From IMG/VR virus record IMGVR_UViG_3300022602_000055: 64,000 nt of DNA. One strand, written 5' to 3'. The stretch comes from an uncultured virus (IMG/VR IMGVR_UViG_3300022602_000055) (Duplodnaviria > Heunggongvirae > Uroviricota > Caudoviricetes). The notes under the pieces were generated by a model. That model made no database searches. It saw only the letters and a program-made list of their open reading frames with translations, and was not told the origin of the DNA. The position numbers and the translations under genes are program-made. Shown here one piece after another: positions 1-52,384 of this stretch (positions within the stretch are counted from its first letter, which is position 1; the number at the start of each line of letters is the position of its first letter).

Positions 1-137
1 GAGAGTTGAAGCAGTTCAAAACGCTGACGCCAGAGCCTACTCTCACTATCAGCCATTGTATAGAGACCTTTTTGTCGTTCAATCTCCGAGTTTAATTCAG
101 CCACCTTCTTGAGATGGGTCTTCTTTAACATAATCAC
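1..137 (-). CDS. Partial hypothetical protein running off the window edge (possibly leaderless)
   Basis: Open frame GTG137/ATG131 MLKKTHLKKVAELNSEIERQKGLY...; TATAGT -10-like hexamer 6 nt upstream of GTG. Confidence 0.4.
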   Translation of the reverse strand, partial: MIMLKKTHLKKVAELNSEIERQKGLYTMADSESRLWRQRFELLQL

Positions 138-247
138 GGCTTTACTATAGCGCACATTGTTTGCAAGCTAAAGCCCGCTAGGTGTAGCCTTTAGGCAACT
201 GTGTCAGCATTTTAGGTGTTACCTACGGGTGAGACTCGGGGGCTTTC

Positions 248-297
248 CTGAGAATTGGCTGAATTAACTCTGGGGGGTGTCTGAGAATTGGCTGTGA
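248..297. repeat. 11-bp-phased CTGAGA-like box array
   Basis: CTG-starting units at 248, 259, 270, 281, 292; CTGAGAATTGGCTG occurs exactly twice. Confidence 0.75.
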
Positions 298-301
298 ATG
301 G

Positions 302-409
302 TTTATAACGATTTCGTTATCTAACCGTTACCGAATCGTTATAACAATCGGTGGCTTTTCGGGAATAAACGGCATAAGGTTCTATTTGTAAGCAAGCAAC
401 ACTGCTTAC
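302..409 (+). promoter_or_regulatory. Repeated early promoter module, copy 1 (GTTAY boxes, GTGG, -10 TAAGGT, 5' leader hairpin)
   Basis: Near-identical to 1984-2095 and 3331-3434; GTTAY at 316/327/338; -10 at 375-380; GTAAGCA/TGCTTAC hairpin. Confidence 0.8.
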
Positions 410-449
410 TTACCGCCTACCTAGTAGGCGTACTGAAAGGGGTAACTAG

Positions 450-707
450 ATGTCACATCTAGTAAATACTCTGTATCTCTTTGACGATACAGACCGTTTT
501 CGCGTCGATGTACAACACCTTGGCAAGGAAACAAACGATAAAGCCTTCTTTGTTACTTTCTATGTAGAAGGCAATAAAGTGTTCGAATTGGTGGATTCGC
601 GAGATGGCAAGGAGTTGCTGAAAGTGGCTGACGCGATTATGACAGCCTTAACTAAGGCTGACAAACTCCACGAAGCGGAACAATTCAATACAGTATCACT
701 AGCCTAG
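450..707 (+). CDS. Hypothetical early protein
   Basis: ORF with strong RBS GAAAGGGG, directly downstream of promoter module. Confidence 0.8.
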   Translation: MSHLVNTLYLFDDTDRFRVDVQHLGKETNDKAFFVTFYVEGNKVFELVDSRDGKELLKVADAIMTALTKADKLHEAEQFNTVSLA

Positions 708-781
708 TGGTTGGCTATCAGGCAGGGGTTCATCCCCTGCCTGGTGGGGAGCAACTAGGCTCCACAGAAAGGGGTAACAGT

Positions 782-943
782 GTGGAAAGCAACGAGTTCT
801 ACGCGGAGTGTAACAAGTGTGGTGACCCTCTCACCATCCATGAGAGTGACCGTGACGAAAACGGTTACTATCTCTGTCGAGACTGTGCTCTATCCAAAGC
901 AGGATACGAGCCTGGAGATGAAATCGGAGGTGAAGCAGCATGA
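782..943 (+). CDS. Small Zn-finger protein (CxxC...CxxC)
   Basis: Start moved to GTG782 after GAAAGGGGTAAC RBS; CNKC and CRDC motifs. Confidence 0.7.
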   Translation: MESNEFYAECNKCGDPLTIHESDRDENGYYLCRDCALSKAGYEPGDEIGGEAA

Positions 944-1206
944 GGGAGCCAATGTATAAGGCAGATTTAGTAAGTCTGCTGGATGTCAAGATTATCAATG
1001 ACACTCAAGAATTCGAGTGTAAGCATTGCGCCGAGTGGAAAGGTGAGGTGGAGTGCTATACCGAACCCGCTACCGAGTATACTGACATGTTCGGTGGCAG
1101 GGGTCACTATCAGGTACCAGTCCATGGCAATTGGTATCAGACGGAGTTTATCTGTCCGAAGTGTGGTCAGCAGAATGACTACGAAGATTTCGTAGCTGAA
1201 GACTAG
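940..1206 (+). CDS. Zn-ribbon hypothetical protein
   Basis: ATGA overlap with upstream gene; CKHC and CPKC. Confidence 0.75.
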   Translation: MREPMYKADLVSLLDVKIINDTQEFECKHCAEWKGEVECYTEPATEYTDMFGGRGHYQVPVHGNWYQTEFICPKCGQQNDYEDFVAED

Positions 1207-1222
1207 AAAGTGAGTTGCCATA

Positions 1223-1555
1223 ATGATTACACAAGAACGCGCAAAAGTTTTACTTGGTGCCTTGCAGATGATTGAGCACCTAGTTACGGCAGACCCTAGC
1301 GATACCCTTTCCATTGACGCATTCTGCCTTGTATGGAATGAAATAGCAGACATAGCCCAGCCTAGTAAGCAACTAGGCTCCAATGAAAGGGGTAACACAA
1401 TGCAGTACAAATTGTATGTGTTTGAAGACTTCGGTCAGGAATACTTGGTCGAGGTTAGTGAGTCAGGTAAGGCGAGCCTCAAGCTCCGTGAGAACGGTAG
1501 CTGGCAGGCTCCTATCTATCCAAAGCGTGTTGAGGAACATGAGTACTCACACTAA
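1223..1555 (+). CDS. Hypothetical protein; probably two in-frame genes (internal start ATG1400)
   Basis: ORF reads through the repeated stem-RBS unit at 1359-1399, which has its own in-frame ATG at 1400. Confidence 0.6.
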   Translation: MITQERAKVLLGALQMIEHLVTADPSDTLSIDAFCLVWNEIADIAQPSKQLGSNERGNTMQYKLYVFEDFGQEYLVEVSESGKASLKLRENGSWQAPIYPKRVEEHEYSH

Positions 1556-1727
1556 GCAGTACTACGCAGTACGCACAGTAGTGCGCTCCATCTTTTGGAG
1601 CGCACTACTCATTGGAACCTTTACTGGTGCAATGGAAGTAAGCCACTATTTAGATAGACACACAAAGCTTGTGCACTGTCATCAAGCTGACCTAGGTTGG
1701 GAGTGTGATACAACATGGAAAAGATAA
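1539..1727 (+). CDS. Small membrane protein
   Basis: GAGG RBS before ATG1539; hydrophobic stretch SIFWSALLIGTFTGAM. Confidence 0.65.
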   Translation: MSTHTKQYYAVRTVVRSIFWSALLIGTFTGAMEVSHYLDRHTKLVHCHQADLGWECDTTWKR

Positions 1728-1852
1728 TCTGGAGTAGCACCGTAACTGCTGACATGATAGGAATGCTTTCTGAAGATGAGAAAGCATCCTTGATTGAAAG
1801 TCTAGATGATGCAGTTATGCAAGTCTGCGAAGACTTCGGAATAGAAGGTTAG
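1715..1852 (+). CDS. Small acidic hypothetical protein (45 aa)
   Basis: Hand-translated MEKIIWSSTVTADMIGMLSEDEKASLIESLDDAVMQVCEDFGIEG; GGGAG RBS. Confidence 0.65.
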   Translation: MEKIIWSSTVTADMIGMLSEDEKASLIESLDDAVMQVCEDFGIEG

Positions 1853-1865
1853 TTACCCCTAACGC

Positions 1866-1897
1866 AATGAGCCCCGCGAGAGCGGGGCTCATTTGTT
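1866..1897 (+). terminator. Intrinsic terminator
   Basis: AATGAGCCCCGC-GAGA-GCGGGGCTCATT followed by TGTTT. Confidence 0.8.
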
Positions 1898-1983
1898 TGG
1901 GTTGGGCTATTGGGCTATGGCTGGCTGGTTATATTAGCTAGGCAACCAGCAAGCTGATAGCTAACAATAGCCCAACCCAAACA
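1894..1983. repeat. Rod hairpin element, copy 1
   Basis: TGTTTGGGTTGGGCTATTG...CAATAGCCCAACCCAAACA inverted repeat with paired interior. Confidence 0.9.
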
Positions 1984-2095
1984 TTTATAACATTTTCGTT
2001 ATCTATTCGTTATCAGTTCGTTACAACAATCGGTGGCTTATCTGTACTGACACGCGTATAGTTCTCTATGTAAGCAAGCGAGAGCGACACTTACA
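1984..2095 (+). promoter_or_regulatory. Repeated early promoter module, copy 2
   Basis: GTTAY at 1998/2009/2020; -10 TATAGT at 2057-2062; TGTAAG/CTTACA leader stem. Confidence 0.8.
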
Positions 2096-2142
2096 CGCGA
2101 GAGAGATGGTCTCTCTCGTTATCTCTGAAAGGAGATGTGCCC

Positions 2143-3189
2143 ATGGCACATGGTCTAGAGGAGCGTGCAGACGGCGGATACGCCTTTGCCCTACGCTCAA
2201 CCCCTGCATGGCATGGTCTAGGTACAGTATTCGACAAGGATGCTGATATCTCTACCTCCGACATGCTTTCAATGGCTCGTTTGGACAATTGGAATGTCCG
2301 CCTGGAGCCTGCCTTAATCCCCGCTGGTTACAATACCACGGGCGATTTGAACATGGTCGTGCGGGATAATCCCGACGGCAATGGTAACGATGTCCTCGCT
2401 GTAGTGGGCGAGCGTTACAATGTCTACCAAAACGAACAATTGTTCGAATTCGGTGACTCTATCCTCGACGGCGGTGCTGCTTGGGAGTCCGCTGGCTCTA
2501 TCAAAGGCGGTCGCCAAGTCTTCGGTTCGCTGGTCGTACCGAAAGAGTTCATTCTCGACCCTAAGGGAGCGAATGACAAGACTGTTACCTATCTCCTCGT
2601 GCATTCCTCGCACGATGGCAGTGCTGCTGTTCAAGCGATGATTACTCCCGTGAGAGTCGTCTGCCAAAACACCCTTGGTCTTGCTATCAATAGCAATAAG
2701 CGTCGCAAAGACGGCACCAAGCAGTCCTTCAAGCTTCGTCACACAAAGACGCTAGCCGCTAACATCGAGGTCGCTCGTACCGCACTTGGTCTCACCATGA
2801 ATTACATGGATGAGTTCGCCAAGCAAGCGCAAGCACTGTTTGAGACTACGGTCACGGACAAGCAGTGGAACGACATCATCACCACTCTCTATCCTCGCCC
2901 TGAGGTTGAGAAGGGTAAGAAATCTGGGGCTCTCACTCTCTGGGAGAACAAGATTGACCTCGTCAATGACTTGTATTTCAAGTCTCCGACCAACGAGAAT
3001 GTCAAAGGCACAGCCTGGGGCGCTCTCAATGCTCTGACTGAGCGCGTGGATTACTTCCGCGCCTCACGCGGTAACGATGGAGCCATCTCTGAGGCTAACA
3101 TCGCTGCTGCATCTGGGTTTGACTCCCAAGTCAATGCTGAGAAGAACCGTATCTTCTCCGCCATCAAGGAACTTACTCTCACTAAGTAA
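2143..3189 (+). CDS. DUF932 (phage/plasmid-like TIGR03299) family protein
   Basis: MAH...PAWHGLG, SHDGS, TPVRVVCQNTL and GTAWGALNALTE motifs; RBS GAAAGGAG. Confidence 0.9.
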   Translation: MAHGLEERADGGYAFALRSTPAWHGLGTVFDKDADISTSDMLSMARLDNWNVRLEPALIPAGYNTTGDLNMVVRDNPDGNGNDVLAVVGERYNVYQNEQLFEFGDSILDGGAAWESAGSIKGGRQVFGSLVVPKEFILDPKGANDKTVTYLLVHSSHDGSAAVQAMITPVRVVCQNTLGLAINSNKRRKDGTKQSFKLRHTKTLAANIEVARTALGLTMNYMDEFAKQAQALFETTVTDKQWNDIITTLYPRPEVEKGKKSGALTLWENKIDLVNDLYFKSPTNENVKGTAWGALNALTERVDYFRASRGNDGAISEANIAAASGFDSQVNAEKNRIFSAIKELTLTK

Positions 3190-3200
3190 GTAATCCTGAT

Positions 3201-3238
3201 AACAAGCAGCCTCGCCTTCGGGCGGGGCTGACTTGTTT
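3201..3238 (+). terminator. Intrinsic terminator (UUCG loop)
   Basis: CAGCCTCGCC-TTCG-GGCGGGGCTG followed by ACTTGTTT. Confidence 0.8.
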
Positions 3239-3328
3239 GGGTTGGGCTGTTATGGCTGTATGGCTGAGGCTGATAAAAAAAATAAAGCCGAAGCCATACA
3301 GCACTATATATAACAGCCCAACCCAAAC
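3235..3328. repeat. Rod hairpin element, copy 2
   Basis: GTTTGGGTTGGGCTGTTAT...ATAACAGCCCAACCCAAAC; inner GCTGTATGGCT/AGCCATACAGC. Confidence 0.9.
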
Positions 3329-3330
3329 CT

Positions 3331-3434
3331 TTTATAACGATTTCGTTATCTAACCGTTACCGTTTTGTTATAACAATCGGTGGAGAACTAGAGAGAAAGA
3401 GCATAAAGTTATCTATGTCAGCAAGTCGCTGGCA
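3331..3434 (+). promoter_or_regulatory. Repeated early promoter module, copy 3
   Basis: GTTAY at 3345/3356/3367; -10 TAAAGT at 3404-3409; TGTCAGC/GCTGGCA leader stem. Confidence 0.8.
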
Positions 3435-3451
3435 CAGTTAAAGGAGAAATT

Positions 3452-3922
3452 ATGACTCTAGTCATAGATGACCTCACTTGGGGTCAAGCCCGTCAAGTAA
3501 TTGACGAGGTAATTGCTAATTATGACGGAAGCGTTGGCAAACGTCAAGCAGAAGTCATTACCTATGCTATTAACCATGAGTTACAACTCAGGGATTATGT
3601 CATGGGTCTGCCTCTAAATTATGACTTAGATACCTGTCTAAGCATGGTTTTCAGTATCGCTGGGCAAGTAGATGAAGCCGAGCGTTACGCACTACTCACT
3701 ATCGCCTCATCTTGGGAGTATGAACTGGGCGATACAAAAGCAGCACTATCTTTACACAGTATTGTTAAGGAAGTAAGTCCTGCTTATAGCCTTAACAACC
3801 TTATTAAGCGAGTCATTGACGCAGGCTGGAGTGGCAATACTTTCACCAGTATGCGGAATGATTGTCACCCGAAAGTTGTTGAAGTTATAGATGAGCGGTT
3901 TGACTCTGTAATCTATCTCTAA
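3452..3922 (+). CDS. DUF4192-like protein
   Basis: LRD motif and C-terminal PAYSLNNLIKRVIDAGW resemble actinobacterial DUF4192. Confidence 0.6.
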   Translation: MTLVIDDLTWGQARQVIDEVIANYDGSVGKRQAEVITYAINHELQLRDYVMGLPLNYDLDTCLSMVFSIAGQVDEAERYALLTIASSWEYELGDTKAALSLHSIVKEVSPAYSLNNLIKRVIDAGWSGNTFTSMRNDCHPKVVEVIDERFDSVIYL

Positions 3923-3931
3923 ACAACACAG

Positions 3932-3962
3932 TTAAGACCTGAGCAAGTCTTAAAAAGGCTCA
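3932..3962 (+). promoter_or_regulatory. H-type pseudoknot leader, copy 1
   Basis: TTAAGAC/GTCTTAA stem; loop TGAGC pairs with GCTCA downstream. Confidence 0.65.
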
Positions 3963-3993
3963 ACACACCTACAACAAAAAGGAGAAGCAACAA

Positions 3994-4389
3994 GTGGAAA
4001 CACAAGACGCAGTACCTACGCAGAATTGCGTATCTGCCGAAGTTCATCAAGAACTTCAATCCCGCTATAACTATATAAACAACACTCTCGAAGCAAGTCG
4101 AGCAAGAATGAGCGACTTCGCTAACAAGGTAGATAACCTAAAAGACTACCTTATCGAGAACCGCGACGACCTCGGAGAACACGCTGAGGCTATCGCAAAC
4201 ATCTTCGATATCAAGATTACTAAGACCTATGATGTCTCGGTAACAGTAATATTTACCGCCACCATCGAGTCTGAGGAAGAGCCTGATGAGTCAGACCTTC
4301 AATACAATGTCACCCCTTCCATGTATTGGGGCTTTGAGGTAATTGAGGATAACTACGAAGTCACCGAAGCCTCGGTAGAAGAGCAGTAA
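3994..4389 (+). CDS. Acidic coiled-coil hypothetical protein
   Basis: ORF with AAGGAG RBS; strongly Asp/Glu-rich C-terminus. Confidence 0.8.
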   Translation: METQDAVPTQNCVSAEVHQELQSRYNYINNTLEASRARMSDFANKVDNLKDYLIENRDDLGEHAEAIANIFDIKITKTYDVSVTVIFTATIESEEEPDESDLQYNVTPSMYWGFEVIEDNYEVTEASVEEQ

Positions 4390-4398
4390 GATAGTTAA

Positions 4399-4427
4399 GC
4401 AACCTGAGCAAGTTGTAAAACTGCTCA
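4399..4427 (+). promoter_or_regulatory. H-type pseudoknot leader, copy 2
   Basis: GCAAC/GTTGT stem; identical loop CTGAGCAA; TGAGCA pairs with TGCTCA. Confidence 0.65.
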
Positions 4428-4460
4428 CCATAACAATACAACTAACAAAGGAGAAACAAA

Positions 4461-5012
4461 ATGGGACTAGATATGTATCTCTACGCAGAGAAGTATGTCA
4501 GTAAGAACGACTATTCCAATGTAAATGGTGAGTACACAAAGACTACTCGACCTGAGTACATGGATATCAAGAACGCCGCAGGTATGGGACACCTTCCTGA
4601 TACTGAGTTCGGTGGTATTACTGTTAAGGCGCAGATTGGGTATTGGCGCAAGGCTAATGCTATTCACGCATGGTTTGTGGATAACTGTGCTAACGGCGTT
4701 GATGAGTGCCAGCCTATCTATGTAGGTTGGGAAAGATTGACAGTATTGTTACAGGTCTGTCAGCAAGAGTTAGCAGTACTGACAGAGGCAGAGGTTGTGC
4801 CTCTAGTTACTGCTACTGCTAGTGCTAAGTCAGCACAATTTGAGAAGGCTCAGCCTGTCAGCACATCATTAGAGCCAAGAGAAGGTTTCTTCTTCGGCAG
4901 TACTGATAAGGACACGTGGTACATTGAAGACCTGAAGCATACAATAGAAATCCTTGAGAACGCTTTGGCGTTAGAGGATGACTACGAGATAACTTACCAA
5001 GCCAGTTGGTAA
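4461..5012 (+). CDS. Conserved phage hypothetical protein (MGLD...YWRKANAIH...YQASW type)
   Basis: Recognisable motif pattern of a widespread phage family; AAGGAG RBS. Confidence 0.8.
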   Translation: MGLDMYLYAEKYVSKNDYSNVNGEYTKTTRPEYMDIKNAAGMGHLPDTEFGGITVKAQIGYWRKANAIHAWFVDNCANGVDECQPIYVGWERLTVLLQVCQQELAVLTEAEVVPLVTATASAKSAQFEKAQPVSTSLEPREGFFFGSTDKDTWYIEDLKHTIEILENALALEDDYEITYQASW

Positions 5013-5029
5013 GATAGTTTTACATGGGA

Positions 5030-5114
5030 AACGGGATAGTTAATCTCCTTTCCTATCCTGTTATGGGCGTCAAGCATGAGGAGTCGGGGACCTCGTGCTT
5101 GGCGCCCTTTTTTT
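5030..5114 (+). ncRNA. Candidate 3'-UTR sRNA with anti-Shine-Dalgarno loop plus terminator
   Basis: 10-bp stem with loop TTAATCTCCTTTC, then a long hairpin and T7 tract. Confidence 0.5.
5065..5114 (+). terminator. Intrinsic terminator
   Basis: GGGCGTCAAGCATGAGG...CCTCGTGCTTGGCGCCC then TTTTTTT. Confidence 0.85.
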
Positions 5115-5139
5115 GTGCCCATTTACGGGTTAACAGTAT

Positions 5140-5223
5140 TGTTTGGGTTGGGCTTGGTTGATAATGGCTATTGAAAGCTTTTGCTTGTACAAGCCGTTTT
5201 TGCAACCAAGCCCAACCCAAACA
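5140..5223. repeat. Rod hairpin element, copy 3
   Basis: TGTTTGGGTTGGGCTTGGTTG...CAACCAAGCCCAACCCAAACA. Confidence 0.9.
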
Positions 5224-5262
5224 TCTCAGCGGACTCTCAGGAAACTCTCAGCCAGCTCACAG
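5224..5262. repeat. 11-bp-phased TCTCAG box array
   Basis: TCTCAG at 5224, 5235, 5246; TCACAG at 5257. Confidence 0.8.
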
Positions 5263-5268
5263 AGAGAT

Positions 5269-5332
5269 GTATAACGATTTGATAACAATTTGGTAACAAA
5301 AGCGTTATCAAAGAGTTATCAAATTGTTATAC
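5269..5332. repeat. Palindromic array of six 11-bp-phased RTAAC/GTTAT boxes
   Basis: ATAAC 5271, ATAAC 5282, GTAAC 5293, GTTAT 5304/5315/5326. Confidence 0.85.
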
Positions 5333-5371
5333 AAAACTATTGACTTTGGGAGAGGACTATGATATAGGGCT

Positions 5372-5642
5372 ACCCCTAGCGGGCTGAAGCCATAACAAGC
5401 CTGATAAGAGCCCGTAATAAGCCTGATAAGCGTGTCCCAGCCAGACCCAGCCGTGCCCGTACTGATAACCTCTCTCGCCTGAGAGATACTAAGACGGGCA
5501 AGGGTTAAAATTGTCGATAAAGAGATATAGCGATTAGTAGTCTTGGCAACTGTATGAGGCATGGTGGGGCTGTGTGTGGGAGAGGCCGAGTCTGGAGATG
5601 GGTTCGGCTGAAGGTATCTGATACGAGTTTGCGCTAGGGGGT
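5372..5642 (+). ncRNA. Candidate ~270-nt structured non-coding RNA (or structured DNA element)
   Basis: No credible ORF; closing helix CCCCTAGCG/CGCTAGGGG plus several internal helices with G-U pairs on the + strand. Confidence 0.45.
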
Positions 5643-5805
5643 GTGATATCTATACAGTTAAGAGATACGCTCCACGCTTAAGAGTTTGTCAGTACTGATA
5701 GCAGGCAGGCAGGAGCAAGGAAGATACTCTCTCTCTATCTATATAGTTAATACAGGAATAAGAAGATACCCTTTCGCGCCGATTATCAGGCTTACTAAGG
5801 CATAT

Positions 5806-5875
5806 ATAACGATTTGGTAACAATGTGCCAAAAGGGACTATTTCGTGTTGTGCTGGATTTGACAGGTGCTAGAGT
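5806..5875 (+). promoter_or_regulatory. Promoter with two RTAAC boxes and -10 TAGAGT
   Basis: ATAAC 5806 and GTAAC 5817; TAGAGT upstream of the GAAAGGGG RBS. Confidence 0.55.
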
Positions 5876-5902
5876 TGGTGTACTCACACGAAAGGGGTGT
5901 TC

Positions 5903-6343
5903 ATGGATACCAACGAGGTACTTCGCGAACTTTCAATGACACAAGGCTTCAATATGCCTGACGAACTGTACAAGTATTATCCCGACAATGTAGAACGAAC
6001 CTACTTCTCTATGCTGGTAAGTGCTATGGCTACTCGCCTGCTGGACTATAACTATGCTGATATGGTGGATGAAAACGCCATAGACGACATGATTAGTCAG
6101 ATTAGTAACCCTGACGATACCGACCCCTACCATGTCAATAAGTGGCGCAATGTAGATACGCTCCGCCTATGGGCTAGTACTGACCTTCAGACAATAGCCG
6201 AGGAGTGGGCGGATGAAAATATCGACCCTCTAGCCGATTATCTATTCCATATCTTGAACGGCTATATCTATGCGGCTAACTATATGGCTACCAATGCTGT
6301 TATCAACTACCTGACCCGTGACCTTATTAAGGCGGATATCTAA
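5903..6343 (+). CDS. Acidic hypothetical protein
   Basis: ORF; ATG5903 follows GAAAGGGG. Confidence 0.8.
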   Translation: MDTNEVLRELSMTQGFNMPDELYKYYPDNVERTYFSMLVSAMATRLLDYNYADMVDENAIDDMISQISNPDDTDPYHVNKWRNVDTLRLWASTDLQTIAEEWADENIDPLADYLFHILNGYIYAANYMATNAVINYLTRDLIKADI

Positions 6344-6501
6344 TGGATAGGTGGCACGCACACGCGCTTATCTGTACTGAGTGCGACTCTAGTTATGACC
6401 TGAACCTTAAGAATACTGAGATGATGGTAAGTATCAAGTGCGCTATCTGTACTGATACCGATTTACTCTATGTACTCCCACCTACCTTTATGGTGGACTA
6501 A
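6343..6501 (+). CDS. Small Zn-finger protein (52 aa)
   Basis: TAATG-coupled at both ends; CTEC and CAIC. Confidence 0.7.
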   Translation: MDRWHAHALICTECDSSYDLNLKNTEMMVSIKCAICTDTDLLYVLPPTFMVD

Positions 6502-6821
6502 TGCCTAAATATCCTAAGAAGTCTGTTCGCCTAGTTGATAATACAGGGAATATATGGGGAGAAGGTATTTTTACCGAAGCCCGAGTGCGCTCCCTTATCA
6601 AGTCCTATAACAAGGCTGGTATCTATCTGATGAACGCTACCGAGAACAAGTGTGTTTGCGAGCATGAATACGAGTCAGGCTGTGCCTGCTGTACGAACGA
6701 GTGCTCCCATTGGTGGGCGTGCGCTGTATGCGAAGAGTACTTCGACCCAGCGCAAGGTAACTTTGTCCGTGACGATATCTATACAGGCTATGTCTTTGTA
6801 TGTAATGGATGTGAGTCATGA
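6501..6821 (+). CDS. Cys-rich hypothetical protein
   Basis: ORF with multiple Cys clusters; coupled to neighbours. Confidence 0.7.
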   Translation: MPKYPKKSVRLVDNTGNIWGEGIFTEARVRSLIKSYNKAGIYLMNATENKCVCEHEYESGCACCTNECSHWWACAVCEEYFDPAQGNFVRDDIYTGYVFVCNGCES

Positions 6822-7114
6822 GCACCCGTGAGCAATACAACGAGCGTGCTAAACAATACTGGCAACGCTACTACTCACAACTAGAGGGAGTCCGTATTGT
6901 TAAGTTTCTAGGGATGAAGTCCGAGGAATACTGCTTCAACCCGTTTCCGACTTTCCTAGTTGAGTACCCTGACGGGGAGCGTTTAACAATACAGGTATCG
7001 CAGGATGAGGAAGGCAATGGTGGGGGATTTCTATTCCTACCCTTTGAGCCCGACTTTGACAGTTACGACAAGGAACACAAGTTGAATAACTACGCTAATA
7101 AGGAGAACAAGTAA
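6818..7114 (+). CDS. Conserved phage hypothetical protein (SQDEEGNGGGFLF motif)
   Basis: ATGA overlap; recognisable motif. Confidence 0.75.
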   Translation: MSTREQYNERAKQYWQRYYSQLEGVRIVKFLGMKSEEYCFNPFPTFLVEYPDGERLTIQVSQDEEGNGGGFLFLPFEPDFDSYDKEHKLNNYANKENK

Positions 7115-7713
7115 TGAACCCAGTAATTGAAACAATCACCCATAACAATCTTATTATTGAAATATGCCAAGATTATGACCCCGAGAACCCTAGAGAGTGG
7201 GAGAACTTAGGGACAATGATTTGTTGGCACAAGCGATACAACTTAGGCGATAGCAATACTGATTACTCGCTGGATGATTACGACTCCGCCGAGGAATTGT
7301 TTAATGCTATTAAGAAGGATAGTTTAGTAGTCCTGCCACTATACCTTTATGACCATAGTGGGATTAGTATGAGTACCTCTACCTATGTGGGTAGGGCTCA
7401 ACACGCTTCATGGGATAGCGGACTCGTTGGCTATATCTATACCACTAAGGAACAAGTGGAACGCGCTGGGGTGACCGAGGAGTCCGATTTGGAGTCAATA
7501 CTCGTCAATGAGGTTGAGATGTATAACCACTACTTAACTGGAGATGTGTACGGCTATCGTGTCTATGACACGCACCAATGCGACTCATGTAAGCACACAG
7601 AAAAGAAACTAATTGACTCATGCTGGGGTTATTACTCACAAGAGGAAGCCCTAAAAACTGCTACTGAACTAATTGAATATAACAACACTATTAAGGAGCA
7701 ACAAAATGCCTAA
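7114..7713 (+). CDS. Conserved mobile-element hypothetical protein (NPREW...LPLYLYDHSG...WDSG)
   Basis: Motif pattern common in phages and ICEs. Confidence 0.8.
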   Translation: MNPVIETITHNNLIIEICQDYDPENPREWENLGTMICWHKRYNLGDSNTDYSLDDYDSAEELFNAIKKDSLVVLPLYLYDHSGISMSTSTYVGRAQHASWDSGLVGYIYTTKEQVERAGVTEESDLESILVNEVEMYNHYLTGDVYGYRVYDTHQCDSCKHTEKKLIDSCWGYYSQEEALKTATELIEYNNTIKEQQNA

Positions 7714-7819
7714 ATATATAGTTGTCCTAGAGGTTGATACTGATAGTAATCCTGAGGACTGGAACTGGGATATGTATAGTGCCACCATAGATGTAGTCTG
7801 CGCTAAAGAGGTATCGTGA
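7706..7819 (+). CDS. Small acidic protein (37 aa)
   Basis: AAGGAG RBS; MPKYIVVLEVDTDSNPEDWNWDMYSATIDVVCAKEVS. Confidence 0.65.
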   Translation: MPKYIVVLEVDTDSNPEDWNWDMYSATIDVVCAKEVS

Positions 7820-7923
7820 GTACCCGTACTGTTAATTGCCCCAAGTGCCACAAAGATATTGAAGTCCGTAGTGGCTTCGCTCATATGACTCTAAATAACC
7901 ATACTACTAAGGAGCACAAGTAA
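7816..7923 (+). CDS. Tiny C2H2 Zn-finger protein (35 aa)
   Basis: GTGA/TAATG coupling; CPKC...H...H. Confidence 0.65.
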   Translation: MSTRTVNCPKCHKDIEVRSGFAHMTLNNHTTKEHK

Positions 7924-8126
7924 TGGATTTCTTTAATGAACTCCCCCAGCATATTAAGGACATAGCCTTCCGCCAACTGGCTGAGGACTTACTAGATAAC
8001 TATCTTATGACCGAGGATGACTCGTACCAAATAGAGCAGACCCTCATGGAAGCACTAGAGAACCAAGAGAACAAGCAATGCCAAGACTACTACCGACAAT
8101 GGAAAGAGGAGCAAGACAATGCCTAA
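7923..8126 (+). CDS. Acidic hypothetical protein
   Basis: Coupled ORF with AAGGAG RBS. Confidence 0.75.
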   Translation: MDFFNELPQHIKDIAFRQLAEDLLDNYLMTEDDSYQIEQTLMEALENQENKQCQDYYRQWKEEQDNA

Positions 8127-8799
8127 CTGGATGACTACTGATTTAACTATTACTGGTAATGCCGAGGATATTAAGGCTATTAAGGAGCAACTCGGCAAGT
8201 CCTACGCCACTAAAGAGGTTGATAGCAAGTGGCTTAAAGATGAAAGCGGAGAGGGTGGAAAGTGGGTTCGCTCTGTTACTGATACAGTTATTGAGAACCC
8301 GATTCTATCGTTTTGGAATATCATCCAACCCAAACCCGAGGAACTAGACGACTACTATCAAGTCGTGGGGAGCAACGGCAAGTCCGTGAACGACTCTACG
8401 GGCTGGTACGGCTGGAATATGGCGAACTGGGGATGTAAGTGGGATGCTAGTGATGTATCTACTTACGAGCATAACAATAATGATACTAAACTCCATTACC
8501 AATTCAATACTCCGTGGGGATTACCTGACCAAGCCTTAACAACACTATCAAGTCAATATCCGAACCTGACCTTCAAGGTTGAATACCAAGAGGAGAACGG
8601 GTGGGGTGGAGAGATTGAGATTAAAGATGGAGAATCTGAGTCACTACTTACCTACGATTCTAAGTGTAATGAGTGTGATGGGCTAGATACTGAGTCGTAC
8701 TGTGACGATTGCGATACCCATATCTGTAATGCTTGCGGATGGCTCAACTGGGAACCTGAGGAGCGTTGTGAGAAGCACCAAGAGGAGATAAAAGCATGA
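8119..8799 (+). CDS. YubB/DUF1281-like ferredoxin-fold protein with C-terminal Cys cluster
   Basis: MPNW...WYGWNMANWGCKWD...FNTPW motifs. Confidence 0.8.
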   Translation: MPNWMTTDLTITGNAEDIKAIKEQLGKSYATKEVDSKWLKDESGEGGKWVRSVTDTVIENPILSFWNIIQPKPEELDDYYQVVGSNGKSVNDSTGWYGWNMANWGCKWDASDVSTYEHNNNDTKLHYQFNTPWGLPDQALTTLSSQYPNLTFKVEYQEENGWGGEIEIKDGESESLLTYDSKCNECDGLDTESYCDDCDTHICNACGWLNWEPEERCEKHQEEIKA

Positions 8800-8927
8800 G
8801 TGACGAGGTAATGTACTGGTCAGACTTAGCCGAACTGACTCACGCTACACAAGTTGAGAAGTTTAACTGGTGTAGTTGTGAGGAGCAGGAATACTTCCCC
8901 TATTCCGATTGCCCGAGGAAAGAGTAA
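8796..8927 (+). CDS. Small hypothetical protein (43 aa)
   Basis: GAGGAG RBS; ATGA/TAATG coupling. Confidence 0.65.
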   Translation: MSDEVMYWSDLAELTHATQVEKFNWCSCEEQEYFPYSDCPRKE

Positions 8928-9070
8928 TGAATAAGATAGTGCTGATACTGGAAGTGGCTGATGATGTCAATTCCTATGATGTAGTTGAATATCTGAATAT
9001 AAACGAACTCTGCCGTATGGAAGAGGACTTAAAACTAATCAAAGGTTGGGAGTGGATTTATGAAGGTTGA
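8927..9070 (+). CDS. Small acidic hypothetical protein (47 aa)
   Basis: TAATG coupling; MNKIVLILEVADD... Confidence 0.65.
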   Translation: MNKIVLILEVADDVNSYDVVEYLNINELCRMEEDLKLIKGWEWIYEG

Positions 9071-9440
9071 TATAAGTGGGTTGGATGTTAGTGGGATTGT
9101 TACCCAGCTTGATAAGACAGTTGAGTCCGTATCGGAAATACCACTAGGACTGCCGTTGGTATGGCTATGGACATGGGACTGTATCTGTAATTTCTACAAA
9201 GATGATGAGTGCCTGATGAAACCTAAAGGGGATGTCCTACGCGCCATGTTGGAGCAAGATGGGGGCGGATTTACCCTTGAATACGGAACCGAACACCACT
9301 ACGAAAGTGTCCGTGACTGGCTTATTACCAATGAACTTATGTTGTATTGCGAGATGTGTGAGAGCAACCCACCACGCAGTATAGATAGCAAGTATTGTGA
9401 AGCGTGTGCGCGAGAGTACAAGGAGTCTGAAAATGAGTAA
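9060..9440 (+). CDS. Hypothetical protein with C-terminal Zn finger
   Basis: ORF; CEMC and CEAC. Confidence 0.75.
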   Translation: MKVDISGLDVSGIVTQLDKTVESVSEIPLGLPLVWLWTWDCICNFYKDDECLMKPKGDVLRAMLEQDGGGFTLEYGTEHHYESVRDWLITNELMLYCEMCESNPPRSIDSKYCEACAREYKESENE

Positions 9441-9621
9441 GCAGTATCACTATATAGTTGTGTGGGATGAGGAAACTAAAGAGTGGAGCGTCGATTTTGA
9501 TGTAGCAATTAACTACGGAGAAGGAGATGTGTGGGATACCAGTACTGAGGAGTGGTCCTTCGCAAGCGAGCATGACGACCATATCCTTAACGAGTTAAAG
9601 GAGAAACTATCTAATGGCTAA
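9433..9621 (+). CDS. Acidic hypothetical protein
   Basis: AAGGAG RBS before ATG9433. Confidence 0.75.
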   Translation: MSKQYHYIVVWDEETKEWSVDFDVAINYGEGDVWDTSTEEWSFASEHDDHILNELKEKLSNG

Positions 9622-9808
9622 AGTAACTGTAATGATTGCGCAGACTTGGGATACCAATGACTTGGCAGACGAGAACACGCCTGCTGATACCAGTATTGAA
9701 ACCCTAATCGACCTTGCGTACAACCGATTCGCTGAGGACATGGACTACCTAGTTAAATATGATGAAGTCCGCGGTTCAATTGTCCATATTGTTGATGAGA
9801 GAGTTTAA
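9614..9808 (+). CDS. Acidic hypothetical protein
   Basis: AAGGAG RBS; overlapping ORF. Confidence 0.75.
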   Translation: MAKVTVMIAQTWDTNDLADENTPADTSIETLIDLAYNRFAEDMDYLVKYDEVRGSIVHIVDERV

Positions 9809-9938
9809 TTGCCCAATGTGCGGTACGCCTACGCACCAACTAAAGAGCGTGTGGGTTACCACTAGCGAAGGCGAGTTAAAGATACCTATGTGCGAGAAAT
9901 GTGAGGAGAAGGCTAGTGTTAAACAAGATGAAGCATAA
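9795..9938 (+). CDS. Small Zn-ribbon protein (47 aa)
   Basis: MREFNCPMC...MCEKC. Confidence 0.6.
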   Translation: MREFNCPMCGTPTHQLKSVWVTTSEGELKIPMCEKCEEKASVKQDEA

Positions 9939-10338
9939 ATTACCTAAGGGGTTTGATATCTATATTGCTAACCCTGATGTCTATAACAAGAGAAGGCAAG
10001 ACCCTGCGTTCTATACGAGAGAACGCTGCTATATCGTAGCCACCATCACTTACAAAGACCATGAGTTTTCTGTCATGTGTAATGGAGAAATGCGTATTGA
10101 GCACCATGATGGCACGATTATCCGATATACCGAGGACTTAGATAGACTAGGTATCACTACTGATAAGAAGCTTTATGCCATACCTGAAGAGTATTGGATT
10201 AACAACTCATGGTTTGAGATATGGGATGAGGTTGATGAGGATTGCTGGGATGGGTGGATTGCCCATACTGTTAGCGATGCTATATCCATGTGCTATGAAG
10301 CAATACAGATAAAAGAAATGGAGATTACCAATGCCTAA
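9916..10338 (+). CDS. Hypothetical protein
   Basis: GAGGAG RBS before GTG9916 (alternative start ATG9928). Confidence 0.7.
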   Translation: MLNKMKHKLPKGFDIYIANPDVYNKRRQDPAFYTRERCYIVATITYKDHEFSVMCNGEMRIEHHDGTIIRYTEDLDRLGITTDKKLYAIPEEYWINNSWFEIWDEVDEDCWDGWIAHTVSDAISMCYEAIQIKEMEITNA

Positions 10339-10510
10339 GTACGAAGTCTATAAGACTGTTGTTATTGACTGGCACACAGTTGTAGAGGCGGATGATAGAG
10401 AGTCCGCTATCAAGCTTGCTACCGAAGGAACCCCGCTATGGGAAGAGGCAGGGGAACGGAGAGATATAGTTTCAGCGTATCTCCGACCCAAACCCGCCGA
10501 GGGCGAGTAA
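10331..10510 (+). CDS. Small hypothetical protein (59 aa)
   Basis: GGAG RBS; MPKYEVYKTVVIDWHTVVEADD... Confidence 0.7.
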   Translation: MPKYEVYKTVVIDWHTVVEADDRESAIKLATEGTPLWEEAGERRDIVSAYLRPKPAEGE

Positions 10511-10671
10511 TGGAGTCAATTTACCCAGCAGACCTGTACGATTACGGGGCTGATGAGTGGATATTGTTTTGCTCTGCGTGTAAGACCACGCTATATTCAC
10601 CAACGAAAAGTATGAATCACTTAATCAGGCTTAAACACACGAAAGGAAATGATTGCCTAAATGGCTACTAA
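10510..10671 (+). CDS. Small Zn-finger protein
   Basis: TAATG coupling; CSAC...H...C. Confidence 0.65.
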   Translation: MESIYPADLYDYGADEWILFCSACKTTLYSPTKSMNHLIRLKHTKGNDCLNGY

Positions 10672-10915
10672 ACGAGTATCGGTATTCTTTAAGACCACGC
10701 TTACAAAGAACCTTAATCAAGGTGGGGCGTGGCTATTAACAGTTAAGAAGTTTAATAGAGAGGGAGAGTTGATTGACTCCCAAAGTTCTGCGTGGAAGTC
10801 ACTTCCAGCGGCAAAGAGAGATGCTACTACCTATATTGGTAAGCGACCAAAGTGGGAGATTAACGAAGAGGTAACAGTATTGACAGCGAACACCGAGGTA
10901 AGAGTAATTGAGTAA
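10661..10915 (+). CDS. Basic hypothetical protein
   Basis: ORF with GAAAGGA RBS. Confidence 0.75.
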   Translation: MATKRVSVFFKTTLTKNLNQGGAWLLTVKKFNREGELIDSQSSAWKSLPAAKRDATTYIGKRPKWEINEEVTVLTANTEVRVIE

Positions 10916-11012
10916 CTTCGGATTCACCAACGGATTGCCTGATTGGCATATTACTAATCCTAATCAAAGTCCTTTTGAGGATGATGAAGAGTTAGAAGAA
11001 GAGGAAGAGTAA
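10908..11012 (+). CDS. Tiny protein with acidic tail (34 aa)
   Basis: TTG start after GAGG; ends EDDEELEEEEE just before the terminator. Confidence 0.5.
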   Translation: MSNFGFTNGLPDWHITNPNQSPFEDDEELEEEEE

Positions 11013-11048
11013 AGAAAGCCCCTAGCTAATATTGCTAGGGGCTTTTTA
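11013..11048. terminator. Bidirectional terminator at the convergence of the + and - transcription blocks
   Basis: AAAGCCCCTAGC-TAATATT-GCTAGGGGCTTTTT. Confidence 0.85.
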
Positions 11049-11069
11049 CTACGAGAGGTGGGTATATCT

Positions 11070-50159: not shown

Positions 50160-50786
50160 TTATAAAGTTGTTGAGTATCCCGATGTCAGCGCATTGGTCG
50201 CACCATCAGTAAAGAAAACATCCAGACCTTCGTGAACAAGGGTAATTTGTTCGAAAAGAATGTTGTTATCAGTACCGTTAAGGTCTGTGTAGTTTAGCGA
50301 AGTAATCCAAGCATTGTGTGCTGTAAAGACAACGCGAGATGTCTGTCCACCAGGTCCAGTTGAATTTGTTGTTGTGGATGGGTGGTCTAGTACATAGATT
50401 TTTACATCTAAACGGAAGTCTGCTCCAGCAACTGAAATACCAGAACCAGCTGCAGCAGCAAAAAGACCGCGCATCCAGTTAATGGCTTGGTCCTGTCCAT
50501 AAATCATTCCTCGGTTAAAAACAAGTGGTTGGAAAGAAGTTGTTCCAGGAATCTGGTGAACAGTGGTGTTGTACCCACCCTCACGATAAGCAATAGCTTG
50601 GGTATTAATCGTCAATCCAGTAACGCTGGTAAAACCACCGCTGAAGCTGGTCAACGCATTAGAGCCAGTAGTAAAGACCGTACCACCATTAAGTGATGGA
50701 CTAAACTCTACGAAATATTTAAAATTGCGTAGCGGGTCTGTAGCTCTGGCACTCCAGTTGTTAGTAATTGCTGAATTAGTTGCCAT
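50160..50786 (-). CDS. Tail tube protein (T4 gp19-like)
   Basis: DPLRNFKY, YREGG, NAW, EQITLVHEG. Confidence 0.9.
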   Translation of the reverse strand: MATNSAITNNWSARATDPLRNFKYFVEFSPSLNGGTVFTTGSNALTSFSGGFTSVTGLTINTQAIAYREGGYNTTVHQIPGTTSFQPLVFNRGMIYGQDQAINWMRGLFAAAAGSGISVAGADFRLDVKIYVLDHPSTTTNSTGPGGQTSRVVFTAHNAWITSLNYTDLNGTDNNILFEQITLVHEGLDVFFTDGATNALTSGYSTTL

Positions 50787-50797
50787 TATTTATCTCC

Positions 50798-52384
50798 TCA
50801 GGATGTCGTGATTACTGTGCCACCATCATATTGAGCAATATTGATGACAACATATTCGGCTGGACGTTGCAGTGCTACACCAACGTTGATATTGACAGTT
50901 CCGCTATCAATAGTCTGAATGGTGTTATTTGTTGAGTCACAAACTACATAGAAGGCTTGAGCAGGAGTATCTCCACGCAAACCACCTTGACGCCAGAATT
51001 GGTTCAAGAAGTTTGCGACAGTTGCGTTGATGCTGCGCCATAGCTTAGGGTCGTTTGGCTCAAAGATGGCATACTTGGTAAGGTCGTTAAGAGCCTTTTC
51101 CAAATAGATAAGGGTACGGCGAATTGGGATGTATCGGTCTACATAACCTTGCTTAATGGTACGAGCACCCATGATTACAATTCCAGCACCATTTACATAA
51201 CGAATGGCATTTACTGGAACACCAGCAGTTCCACCACTCGCTAGCAAGTCTAGGTCTGCGTTTGTAATGTTTTGAACCGATACTGCTCCACCAATGCGGG
51301 TTTGAGTACCTGCAGGAGCTTTAAATACTCCTGGGTTACCGCGAGACTTATCGGTAGCAAGATACTGAGCAATTACAGCAGCGCCTGGTGCAATGTTCTT
51401 TGTAGCACCTGCAGCGTTAGATGTTGGGTCTGCAATCGTGATGTATGGGTAGTAGATAGCTGCAAAAGATGTAATTGGGCTGTATGCAGAGGCAAGAGAA
51501 AGAGTATCCGCTACGTCTGTTGTCTGAGTTGTTGAGTTAAAGTATGGGTCAATAACCAAGAAACAGTCTGTACGAGCAGAAGTTGTTCCAGCGTTTACAT
51601 AGTTAAGCATAGTGTTAACCGCTGAGTTATCTCCTGAAGATGCGCCAATTCCTGGGGCGTTGATGATAAGGCTTTGAGCGATGGAGTCAAAGTTAGTAAT
51701 AGCGGTAGCAACTGCTGAACTTGTTTGTCCACCAGAGCCGTTTGTTCCGCCAGATAGTTGTTGACCAGACACTGCATATGGAGCTTTTCCTGGCTCACCG
51801 CTAGTATCACCGTCATCAACTACAGTAATCCAAGGAGATACCCCATTGATTACCTGTGGAGCATAGCGTGAATTAGTAGCATCCATAGAGAGGTCTGTGT
51901 ATTTTTCTACAGTGCTGTTTTGAGCTGAGCTACCGTAGTAAACAACGAGAGTGAATGTTGTTGAAGTAGTACTTTGCTTTAGGACATCAACATAGAGATT
52001 GTTTCCCCATGAGCCTGAGCTAAGAGCATTAATCTTTAAAGTATACGTGGAGCCTTGGCTATTGCCAGCTCCGCTTGAGTCATAAAGCTGTGCATAGGCG
52101 GTAGTGGCGCCAGATGCAGCTACGCGTTGAATGTAGCAAGCTCCTCCACCATTTCCTACCAAGAATGAGTTTACAGCAAGGCGAAGGGTATCTGTTGAGT
52201 CGTATGCCCAGTTGCCATAAAGTTGAGTGAACTGAGTCCAAGATGTAACAAGTGTCGGTGTGGTTGGACCTTGGTTGATTGCACCTAGAAACGCAGCGTA
52301 AGTGTTTGTTGTTGCGCCTAGCGATGGTGGTGTTGGATTCAGTGTTTCTGAAATATACACACCAGGGCGTTGGTAAACTGCCAT
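50798..52384 (-). CDS. Tail sheath protein
   Basis: RPGVYISE, FKAPAG, GART, FEPND, RPAEYV. Confidence 0.95.
   Translation of the reverse strand: MAVYQRPGVYISETLNPTPPSLGATTNTYAAFLGAINQGPTTPTLVTSWTQFTQLYGNWAYDSTDTLRLAVNSFLVGNGGGACYIQRVAASGATTAYAQLYDSSGAGNSQGSTYTLKINALSSGSWGNNLYVDVLKQSTTSTTFTLVVYYGSSAQNSTVEKYTDLSMDATNSRYAPQVINGVSPWITVVDDGDTSGEPGKAPYAVSGQQLSGGTNGSGGQTSSAVATAITNFDSIAQSLIINAPGIGASSGDNSAVNTMLNYVNAGTTSARTDCFLVIDPYFNSTTQTTDVADTLSLASAYSPITSFAAIYYPYITIADPTSNAAGATKNIAPGAAVIAQYLATDKSRGNPGVFKAPAGTQTRIGGAVSVQNITNADLDLLASGGTAGVPVNAIRYVNGAGIVIMGARTIKQGYVDRYIPIRRTLIYLEKALNDLTKYAIFEPNDPKLWRSINATVANFLNQFWRQGGLRGDTPAQAFYVVCDSTNNTIQTIDSGTVNINVGVALQRPAEYVVINIAQYDGGTVITTS

Follow-up and report, generated by a model that had tools for sequence, protein, structure and literature searches.

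An uncultured virus carries, directly behind one of its early gene cassettes, a hairpin whose loop is complementary to Shine-Dalgarno (SD) sequences. This raises the question of which RNAs such a loop could address, i.e., the SDs of host and phage mRNAs in general, as proposed by the first-pass annotation, a restricted set of ribosome-binding sites (RBS), or no RNA at all. The window, i.e., the whole stretch of 64,000 nucleotides that was analyzed, belongs to a myovirus: ribonucleotide reductase, DNA polymerase, helicases, primase, sheath and baseplate are encoded on the minus strand, and the small early-type genes form a plus-strand block at 1-11 kb. The nearest cultured relatives of the sheath belong to Streptomyces phages (36-39% amino-acid identity), and the 183-aa protein encoded just upstream of the hairpin, which is without family assignment, finds a relative at 32% in a Lysinibacter MAG. 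The related contigs were all recovered from metagenomes of lakes or other environments. From sequence comparison an actinobacterial host is plausible. The window has no tRNA gene; on the minus strand, ORF 13197-14672 matches the PHROG «queuine tRNA-ribosyltransferase» (E = 6e-45) and may thus encode a DpdA/Tgt-like enzyme modifying DNA or tRNA.

Early genes are grouped in cassettes, and between these recurs a module composed of a terminator, a long hairpin, TATAACGATTT / GTTATC repeats and a promoter-like TTGACT. Each cassette is presumably a single transcript, judging solely from terminator positions. The features discussed below are collected in Table 1.

Table 1. Positions of the hairpins, candidate target sites and module parts in the window and, where indicated, in related contigs.
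Feature	Position	Strand	Description
Flagged hairpin	5030..5062	+	10-bp stem, 13-nt loop; 3'UTR of cassette C (genes 3452-5012)
Anti-RBS core AUCUCCUUUC	5043..5052	+	UCUCCUUU (5044-5051) is the exact complement of AAAGGAGA
Intrinsic terminator	5066..5114	+	17-bp stem 5066-5107, 9-nt loop, T7/U7 at 5108-5114
RBS AAAGGAGA, gene 3452-3922	3440..3447	+	Candidate same-cassette target; duplex −10.3 kcal/mol
RBS AAAGGAGA, gene 3994-4389	3978..3985	+	Candidate same-cassette target
RBS AAAGGAGA, gene 4461-5012	4447..4454	+	Candidate target, 558 nt upstream of the 3'UTR
DUF932 RBS GAAAGGAGAT	2127..2136	+	Cassette B, neighbour; 10-nt loop complement; predicted paired with AUCUCU 2120-2125
Second anti-RBS element	1848..1863	+	Cassette A 3'UTR; small hairpin GUUAG / loop UUACCC / CUAAC
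RBS GAAAGGGGTAAC, gene 450-707	435..446	+	Cassette A; 11-nt complement to the cassette A 3'UTR
RBS GAAAGGGGTAAC, before GTG 780	767..778	+	Cassette A
RBS GAAAGGGGTAAC, before ATG 1400	1385..1396	+	Cassette A
Terminator-like hairpin	1866..1893	+	Ends cassette A
Long hairpin/inverted repeat, outer arms GTTTGGGTTGGGC/GCCCAACCCAAAC	1895-1982, 3235-3328, 5141-5222		Window
Long hairpin copies in relatives	L055 841/2142/3622; L121 3807/5333/7439; L163 72/1192/2503		
TATAACGATTT / GTTATC repeats	304-345, 3333-3375, 5270-5335, 5805-5830		Window

Sequence and predicted fold confirm the architecture first described for this locus, i.e., a 10-bp stem with a 13-nt loop, followed by a strong terminator, after the last gene of the cassette. 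The stem is formed by AACGGGATAG (5030-5039) and CTATCCTGTT (5053-5062), with one G:U (5033-5059) among its 10 pairs; the loop, UUAAUCUCCUUUC, reads TTAATCTCCTTTC over its 13 nt (5040-5052). The hairpin begins 18 nt beyond the stop codon (TAA, 5010-5012) that closes the 183-aa ORF. It has no U-tract and is not itself a terminator; a G+C-rich hairpin followed by a U-tract, as expected for an intrinsic terminator, is found at 5066-5114. The C/U-rich motif (5043-5058) thus lies between the stop codon and the terminator starting at 5066, i.e., in the position of the icaR-type motif considered below. The 116 nt of 5010-5125 fold with a predicted −49.9 kcal/mol (z = −5.6; none of 200 shuffles equals this value), and in the predicted fold of the isolated 88-nt RNA (hairpin plus terminator) the loop bases are mostly unpaired.

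Rfam returned no family at gathering score for the whole window. For 4000-6500, RF01066 (6C) had no match at E up to 10, and the only matches were sub-threshold, miRNA-like and located on the long inverted repeat. Among lake metatranscriptomes, 20 runs contain 5-25% of the words of 3900-5900. RNA contigs from 4 lake libraries cover 3900-5024 (about 95-99% identity) and none covers 5039-5900, contigs being unable to show RNA ends or absence. In the contigs of two runs, 121 bases of 3990-4112 are replaced by 118 different letters; this is a strain-level variable segment, inside or adjoining gene 3994-4389.

Three other uses of this sequence were considered and rejected: (i) the plus-strand ORF 5024-5161 lacks an SD, and a deletion removes its ATG in the related contig L055; (ii) a small ORF on the opposite strand reads GGAG, 19 nt, ATG and at once TAA, this ATG being the only start after GGAG and absent in L055 (the opposite strand indeed has no properly spaced start codon, as had been annotated); (iii) pairing of the loop with GAGGAG of the terminator arm, as an attenuator, does not hold since L055 has no GAGGAG.

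The complementarity of the loop is found first of all in its own cassette. The three genes of cassette C all have the RBS AAAGGAGA, complementary to the loop over 8 nt each, and the same sequence, 5-9 nt 5' of the start, precedes the genes at 3452, 3994, 4461 and 9614, in agreement with the match to neighbouring early RBSs that had been noted. The computed loop-RBS duplexes of cassette C reach −10.3 to −10.5 kcal/mol, for computed opening costs of 0.5-1.3 kcal/mol (SDs) and 2.1 kcal/mol (loop). Upon 93 genes (crude gene calls), 7 have at least 8 nt complementary to the loop, and 4 of these 7 are the four genes immediately upstream. The AGGAGAU-type RBSs announced for late genes are also present: AAGGAGAT at the sheath gene (50798-52384, minus strand) and AGGAGAT at the adjoining gene (50160-50786, minus strand).

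The longest match is with the DUF932 gene of the neighbouring cassette, where the loop complements GAAAGGAGAU. The annotated exact complementarity to this RBS was verified: GAAAGGAGAT occurs once per strand in the window, at 2127-2136 (plus strand) and as the loop complement at 5043-5052. The computed duplex is −14.1 kcal/mol, for what is a single 10-mer match. ATG 2143 is a likelier DUF932 start than GTG 2137. In the DUF932 leader (2100-2145), AUCUCU (2120-2125) is predicted to pair with the SD GGAGAU over a GAAA loop (probability of being unpaired 0.000). Comparable local leader hairpins exist in L121 and L117 and are absent in most of the 15 relatives checked; local sequestering of the SD was thus rejected as a consistent feature of this leader.

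Across early positions 1-11050 the sense strand has a single CTCCTT, the one within the loop beside the terminator. Anti-SD-like pentamers are rarer than expected on this strand (CTCCT, 3 vs. 8.4; CCTCC, 1 vs. 5.7).

Could such a loop arise by chance? The window contains 448 plus-strand and 361 minus-strand hairpins with a stem of at least 8 bp. The probability that at least one plus-strand loop contains CTCCTT is about 0.47, and over 64 kb chance would give the 8-mer CTCCTTTC roughly one occurrence on each strand, so the flagged hairpin by itself is not beyond chance; its weight comes from position, conservation and context. Taken alone, the element gives P = 0.002-0.012 when the whole 3'UTR is shuffled, and P = 0.07 when only its C/U-rich core, a 16-mer facing three identical RBSs, is shuffled. 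The values of 0.47 and 0.07 speak for an ordinary 3' structural hairpin, i.e., an exonuclease barrier or auxiliary terminator element, resembling an anti-SD through chance and composition. Tandem hairpins before terminators are common, no RNA family was matched, and relatives at about 40% identity carry different hairpins at the same position. This explanation is nevertheless judged rather unlikely, for reasons that appear when the other cassettes and lineages are considered: it leaves unexplained (i) a unique GTTACCCCT facing three private RBSs in cassette A, (ii) the matching flavours of L121 and L163 and (iii) the pooled excess of matches, and L055 conserves the sequence of the hairpin and not merely its structure.

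Cassette A has a second element of this kind. Its 3'UTR contains GTTACCCCT, found once on the plus strand, and the 9-mer GUUACCCCU (1852-1860), also a single plus-strand occurrence in the window, lies within a hairpin which overlaps the stop codon (1850-1852). The motif is located between stop codon and terminator, again as in icaR. The hairpin is weak and not part of the minimum free energy fold; its stem covaries in L121 (AUUAG/CUAAU). What it faces is a private 12-nt RBS, GAAAGGGGUAAC, present three times in 64 kb and always in cassette A: the 12-mer GAAAGGGGTAAC has 3 copies in 64 kb vs. 0.25 expected (one mismatch allowed), all three being cassette A RBSs. Upstream complements of at least 7 nt to the cassette A 3'UTR also number three, and all are RBSs (435, 767, 1385). 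The complementarity, GUUACCCCU vs. AGGGGUAAC for three genes, extends over 8-11 nt, the longest (11 nt, first RBS) having P = 0.003. Cassette A alone gives P = 0.002-0.016 (3'UTR shuffled) or 0.01 (core shuffled). The pairing takes in UAAC, i.e., spacer bases lying outside the pairing of the 16S tail. In at least two cassettes, thus, the stretch from the last stop codon to the terminator contains a short C/U-rich sequence displayed in a hairpin loop or around it, and the pairing in cassette C (UCUCCUUU vs. AAAGGAGA) likewise concerns three genes. No such C/U tract was seen in the cassette D 3'UTR examined, nor at the two minus-strand terminators found.

Conservation of the loop in relatives, on which the first-pass annotation made its proposal depend, could be followed in one informative relative of the same flavour. 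L054 (95% protein identity) has near-identical intergenic DNA with an identical hairpin and is uninformative, so that two distinct sequences of the flagged hairpin are available. In L055 the upstream protein is 51% identical. Its coding flank diverges and a different inner stem is found in the terminator, while AAACGGGATAGT (5' arm) and TCTCCTTTCCT (loop core) remain unchanged, as expected for a conserved seed. Three bases differ in the 5' part of the loop and an indel is found in the 3' arm, giving an 8-bp stem and an 18-nt loop in which the core is still presented. In other words, the hairpin is conserved in sequence, and the neighbouring terminator keeps its structure with a changed sequence (outer stem and U-tract are kept in L055 and L121, the inner stem is replaced). 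The RBS spacers of L055 showed no covariation with the 5' portion of its loop. L055 also has an 11-nt gap upstream of the hairpin, so no promoter is conserved there.

More distant lineages carry other sequences in the same relation. In L121, RBSs are of the GGGA/GGGG type, with no AAAGGAG in 9 kb; the 3'UTR corresponding to cassette C reads AAUCCCUUUCG, and its AUCCCUUUCG faces three RBSs, GAAAGGGA(U) twice (5060, 5498) and GAAAGGG once (6138). In L121 module A, the loop GUGCCCCU faces the RBS AGGGGCAC at 2690. In L163, the 3'UTR CCUUCCC faces (U)GGGAAGG at 228 and 1379, and this core has 3 matches to its own RBSs and 0-1 in other lineages. The 9-nt form in other lineages is GAAAGGGAT. The tracts of L121 and L163 lie in no clear loop and are partly paired in predicted folds. 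L055, L121 and L163 are thus three related lineages with 3'UTR tracts matching their own, differing RBS flavours.

Relatives at about 40% identity have other hairpins after the homologous gene, and no anti-SD loop was seen there. A hairpin containing CACUCCUUUC in these relatives was rejected as an exposed anti-SD loop, the motif being predicted paired inside a larger conserved structure. L011 (~895-1030) and, at the corresponding position, some 35 related loci have a conserved and strongly structured element (about 135 nt), which GTTGGGTAGGCG/CGCCTAYTCAAC close and which contains conserved hairpins; in the ~40%-identity relatives this element precedes the 183-aa homologue by about 2 kb, has no Rfam match (L011 800-1150 searched) and may be the counterpart of the long hairpins of the window. 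Outside these contigs, no phage record matches 4400-5400 and the nearest virus record (G001) is without this region. Searches of IMG/VR with exact or gapped hairpin patterns and with a 20-nt arm pattern gave no match; the 87 and 42 matches to shorter patterns mostly had no paired arms of the module and were taken as chance.

The relation between 3'UTR and RBS was then expressed over all cassettes. For the 3'UTRs of 10 cassettes, with the SD left aside in calling gene starts, 20-nt RBS windows and composition-preserving shuffles, there are 11 matches of at least 7 nt vs. 1.24 expected, and 7 matches of 8 nt vs. 0.28 expected; none of 5000 shuffles reaches either count. The window and L055, being homologous, are not independent in this pooled test. 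With only the C/U-rich cores shuffled, 10 matches are obtained vs. 1.69 expected (0 of 5000 shuffles), and 1 with reversed tracts as a control; the core tracts and UTR borders were picked after the data had been seen, the core-only shuffle being otherwise the stricter null. Five of the 10 3'UTRs have no RBS match, namely cassette B of the window, cassettes A and B of L055 (only 791 nt of upstream sequence being available for the former), cassette B of L163 and, at k = 8, cassette A of L121; both DUF932 single-gene cassettes are among the 3'UTRs without match. A cruder test over whole cassettes gives P = 0.003-0.004 for cassette A and P = 0.02 for cassette C of the window, and is not significant for cassette C of L055 and cassettes A and C of L121 (P about 0.45-0.48 for 8-mers).

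The complementarity of loop and SD is probably a selected feature, since a relative with just 51% identity in the upstream protein has the same core, and a second cassette as well as other lineages show the relation again. To this extent the anti-SD interpretation of the first-pass annotation stands; its other part, a general block of SD-led translation, does not. In that reading a 3'UTR-derived sRNA would mimic the 3' end of 16S rRNA and titrate SDs globally, leaderless mRNAs being spared. The loop does share CUCCUUUC with the 16S tail, many phage genes have an SD-like AGGAGA(T), and a hairpin plus terminator is the typical 3' architecture of an sRNA. However, the elements vary with cassette and lineage (UCUCCUUU, GUUACCCCU, UCCCUUUC, CCUUCCC) and follow their own RBS flavour, and the matches reach spacer bases outside the pairing of the 16S tail (...CCUCCUUUCU). 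An invariant CCUCC core, presumably the mark of such a mimic, is absent: the loop reads AUCUCCUUUC. Moreover: (i) for the RBSs of the phage itself, the elements are better pairing partners than the 16S tail; (ii) a global mimic would need to rival ribosomes in number; (iii) the sheath gene of the phage itself and its neighbour would be inhibited too; (iv) no conserved promoter lies upstream of the hairpin; (v) the DUF932 SD is predicted to be locally sequestered. Mimicry of the 16S 3' end is thus highly improbable.

The flagged hairpin abuts the conserved module, and it could be a protein recognition site or a DNA-level part of that module (e.g., the operator of an RNA-binding translational repressor encoded by the phage, or a nuclease site), the RBS match being secondary. 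The adjacency to the GTTATC / TATAACGATTT motifs and long inverted repeats is in favor of this, as is the 5' arm AAACGGGATAGT, invariant in L055 although its pairing partner is lost; anti-RBS pairing gives no account of this arm. On the other side, further close copies of AACGGGATAGT are absent from the window (12 matches with at most 2 mismatches vs. 13.2 expected), L121 keeps the C/U tract and not the arm, and the complementarities of cassette A, L121 and L163 are left unaccounted for. A site of this kind is considered quite improbable as the main function.

The module itself is present in three copies in each of L055, L121 (DUF932 71% identical) and the L163 group. A long hairpin directly follows each early-cassette terminator; its arms GTTTGGGTTGGGC have 8 matches vs. 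0.95 expected, and the inner arms vary among copies and stay complementary, the arm changes of one L121 copy being compensated (GTTTGGGTCGGGC/GCCCGACCCAAAC). Possible roles for this long hairpin are processing of the RNase III type, cruciform formation or a site for a regulator. After each long hairpin come the TATAACGATTT / GTTATC repeats (10 matches vs. 1.3 expected). The corresponding positions of L121 (5285-5330, 5400-5440, 7520-7575) have inverted TTATCCACA/TGTGGATAA, which we take to be the DnaA-box consensus. Repeats of the TATAACGATTT type are candidate operators of an early regulator or candidate DnaA-binding sites. Downstream of the repeats, the promoter-like TTGACT is conserved about 17 nt 5' of a TA-rich hexamer (window 5340-5368, L055 ~3757-3790, L121 ~7586-7615); it is missing from the consensus promoter scan, and about 530 nt, apparently non-coding, separate it from the next gene (start near 5904).

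The reading to which we give a slight preference is that the flagged hairpin is a cassette-specific anti-RBS element, able to pair with the RBSs of its own early genes, either in cis or through stable 3' fragments. It is probably, as far as its sequence tells, one among several cassette-end RNA elements able to pair with same-cassette RBSs. After transcription of the 3'UTR, the element would pair with these RBSs, either inside the polycistronic mRNA itself or in trans, as part of a 3' fragment (hairpin plus terminator) that resists nucleases. This pairing would compete with 30S binding, translation and mRNA stability would fall, and the early genes would be shut off in a self-limiting way. The pattern points to early genes damping their own expression rather than to translation being shut off in general. 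There is one element per mRNA for three RBSs, 0.5-1.6 kb away, and at this distance a weak effect in cis is to be expected; a stable hairpin-terminator fragment acting in trans would resolve this disproportion.

Precedents exist for pairing of this kind. For icaR of Staphylococcus aureus, the original report describes a 3'UTR UCCCCUG which pairs with the SD of its own mRNA, blocks initiation and creates an RNase substrate (PMC3868564). The phage elements are comparable in that their 3'UTR, too, has a C/U-rich anti-SD motif whose complement is the SD region of its own mRNA. They differ in that (i) the cassette is polycistronic, with three identical RBSs facing one element, (ii) the element is placed in a hairpin loop beside the terminator, (iii) at least two cassettes have each a private RBS/anti-RBS pair, and (iv) they are known from sequence. 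In Bacillus subtilis, a recent report states that pyrimidine-rich, anti-SD-like 8-12-mers pair with an RBS hundreds of nt away, so that the mRNA is shorter-lived and less translated, with protein still down 44% at more than 500 nt, and that genes are depleted of such sequences (Gill et al. 2025, PMC12697547). The depletion of anti-SD-like pentamers on the early sense strand of the phage is similar. The B. subtilis case concerns engineered reporter substitutions and avoidance; in the phage, by contrast, the 3' ends of cassettes keep and conserve such sequences, which implies use and not avoidance.

A third comparison is with the 6C sRNA of Actinobacteria, for which C-rich loops binding mRNAs without a chaperone have been described (RF01066; PMC6486639). 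The predicted pairing of a C-rich loop with G-rich sites is alike, and the likely host phylum is the same. However, the phage element does not match the covariance model, has one C/U-rich loop instead of two or more C-rich loops, and is a phage-encoded 3'UTR element with no conserved promoter upstream, not a free-standing gene. Small RNAs derived from mRNA 3' ends have their seed just upstream of the parental terminator and need no promoter of their own. The complementary region of the phage element is likewise just upstream of the cassette terminator; in contrast with these detected RNAs, which act mostly on other mRNAs in trans, the targets predicted here are the RBSs of the same cassette. 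The anti-RBS elements would thus fall, as a variant, within known 3'UTR anti-SD pairing. From the complementarities we infer pairing in vivo, with repression argued from the precedents. A full-text search of the literature, not exhaustive, found no description of cassette-specific anti-RBS 3'UTR elements in phages.

A bolder version may be formulated, and is put forward tentatively as an unlikely one: each early cassette would have a private extended RBS «code», and its 3' fragment would accumulate and act in trans as a cassette-specific anti-RBS sRNA. The mRNA would be degraded from its 5' side, the nuclease-resistant hairpin plus terminator would remain, and the result would be a chaperone-free, self-timed shut-off of individual early gene sets.

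The more dramatic ribosome-mimic reading, with a reprogramming toward leaderless mRNAs, is corrected here, being unsupported by these data. If cassette-specific anti-RBS pairing is true, its meaning for these phages would be the following: (i) paired sequence «addresses», i.e., a private RBS and its 3'UTR complement, would control phage early genes post-transcriptionally; (ii) this would be a natural and conserved use of a long-range anti-SD folding otherwise avoided by bacteria; (iii) it would provide a simple RNA-only timer in a host group lacking Hfq (likely Actinobacteria); (iv) it would give a rule for the annotation of phage 3'UTRs.
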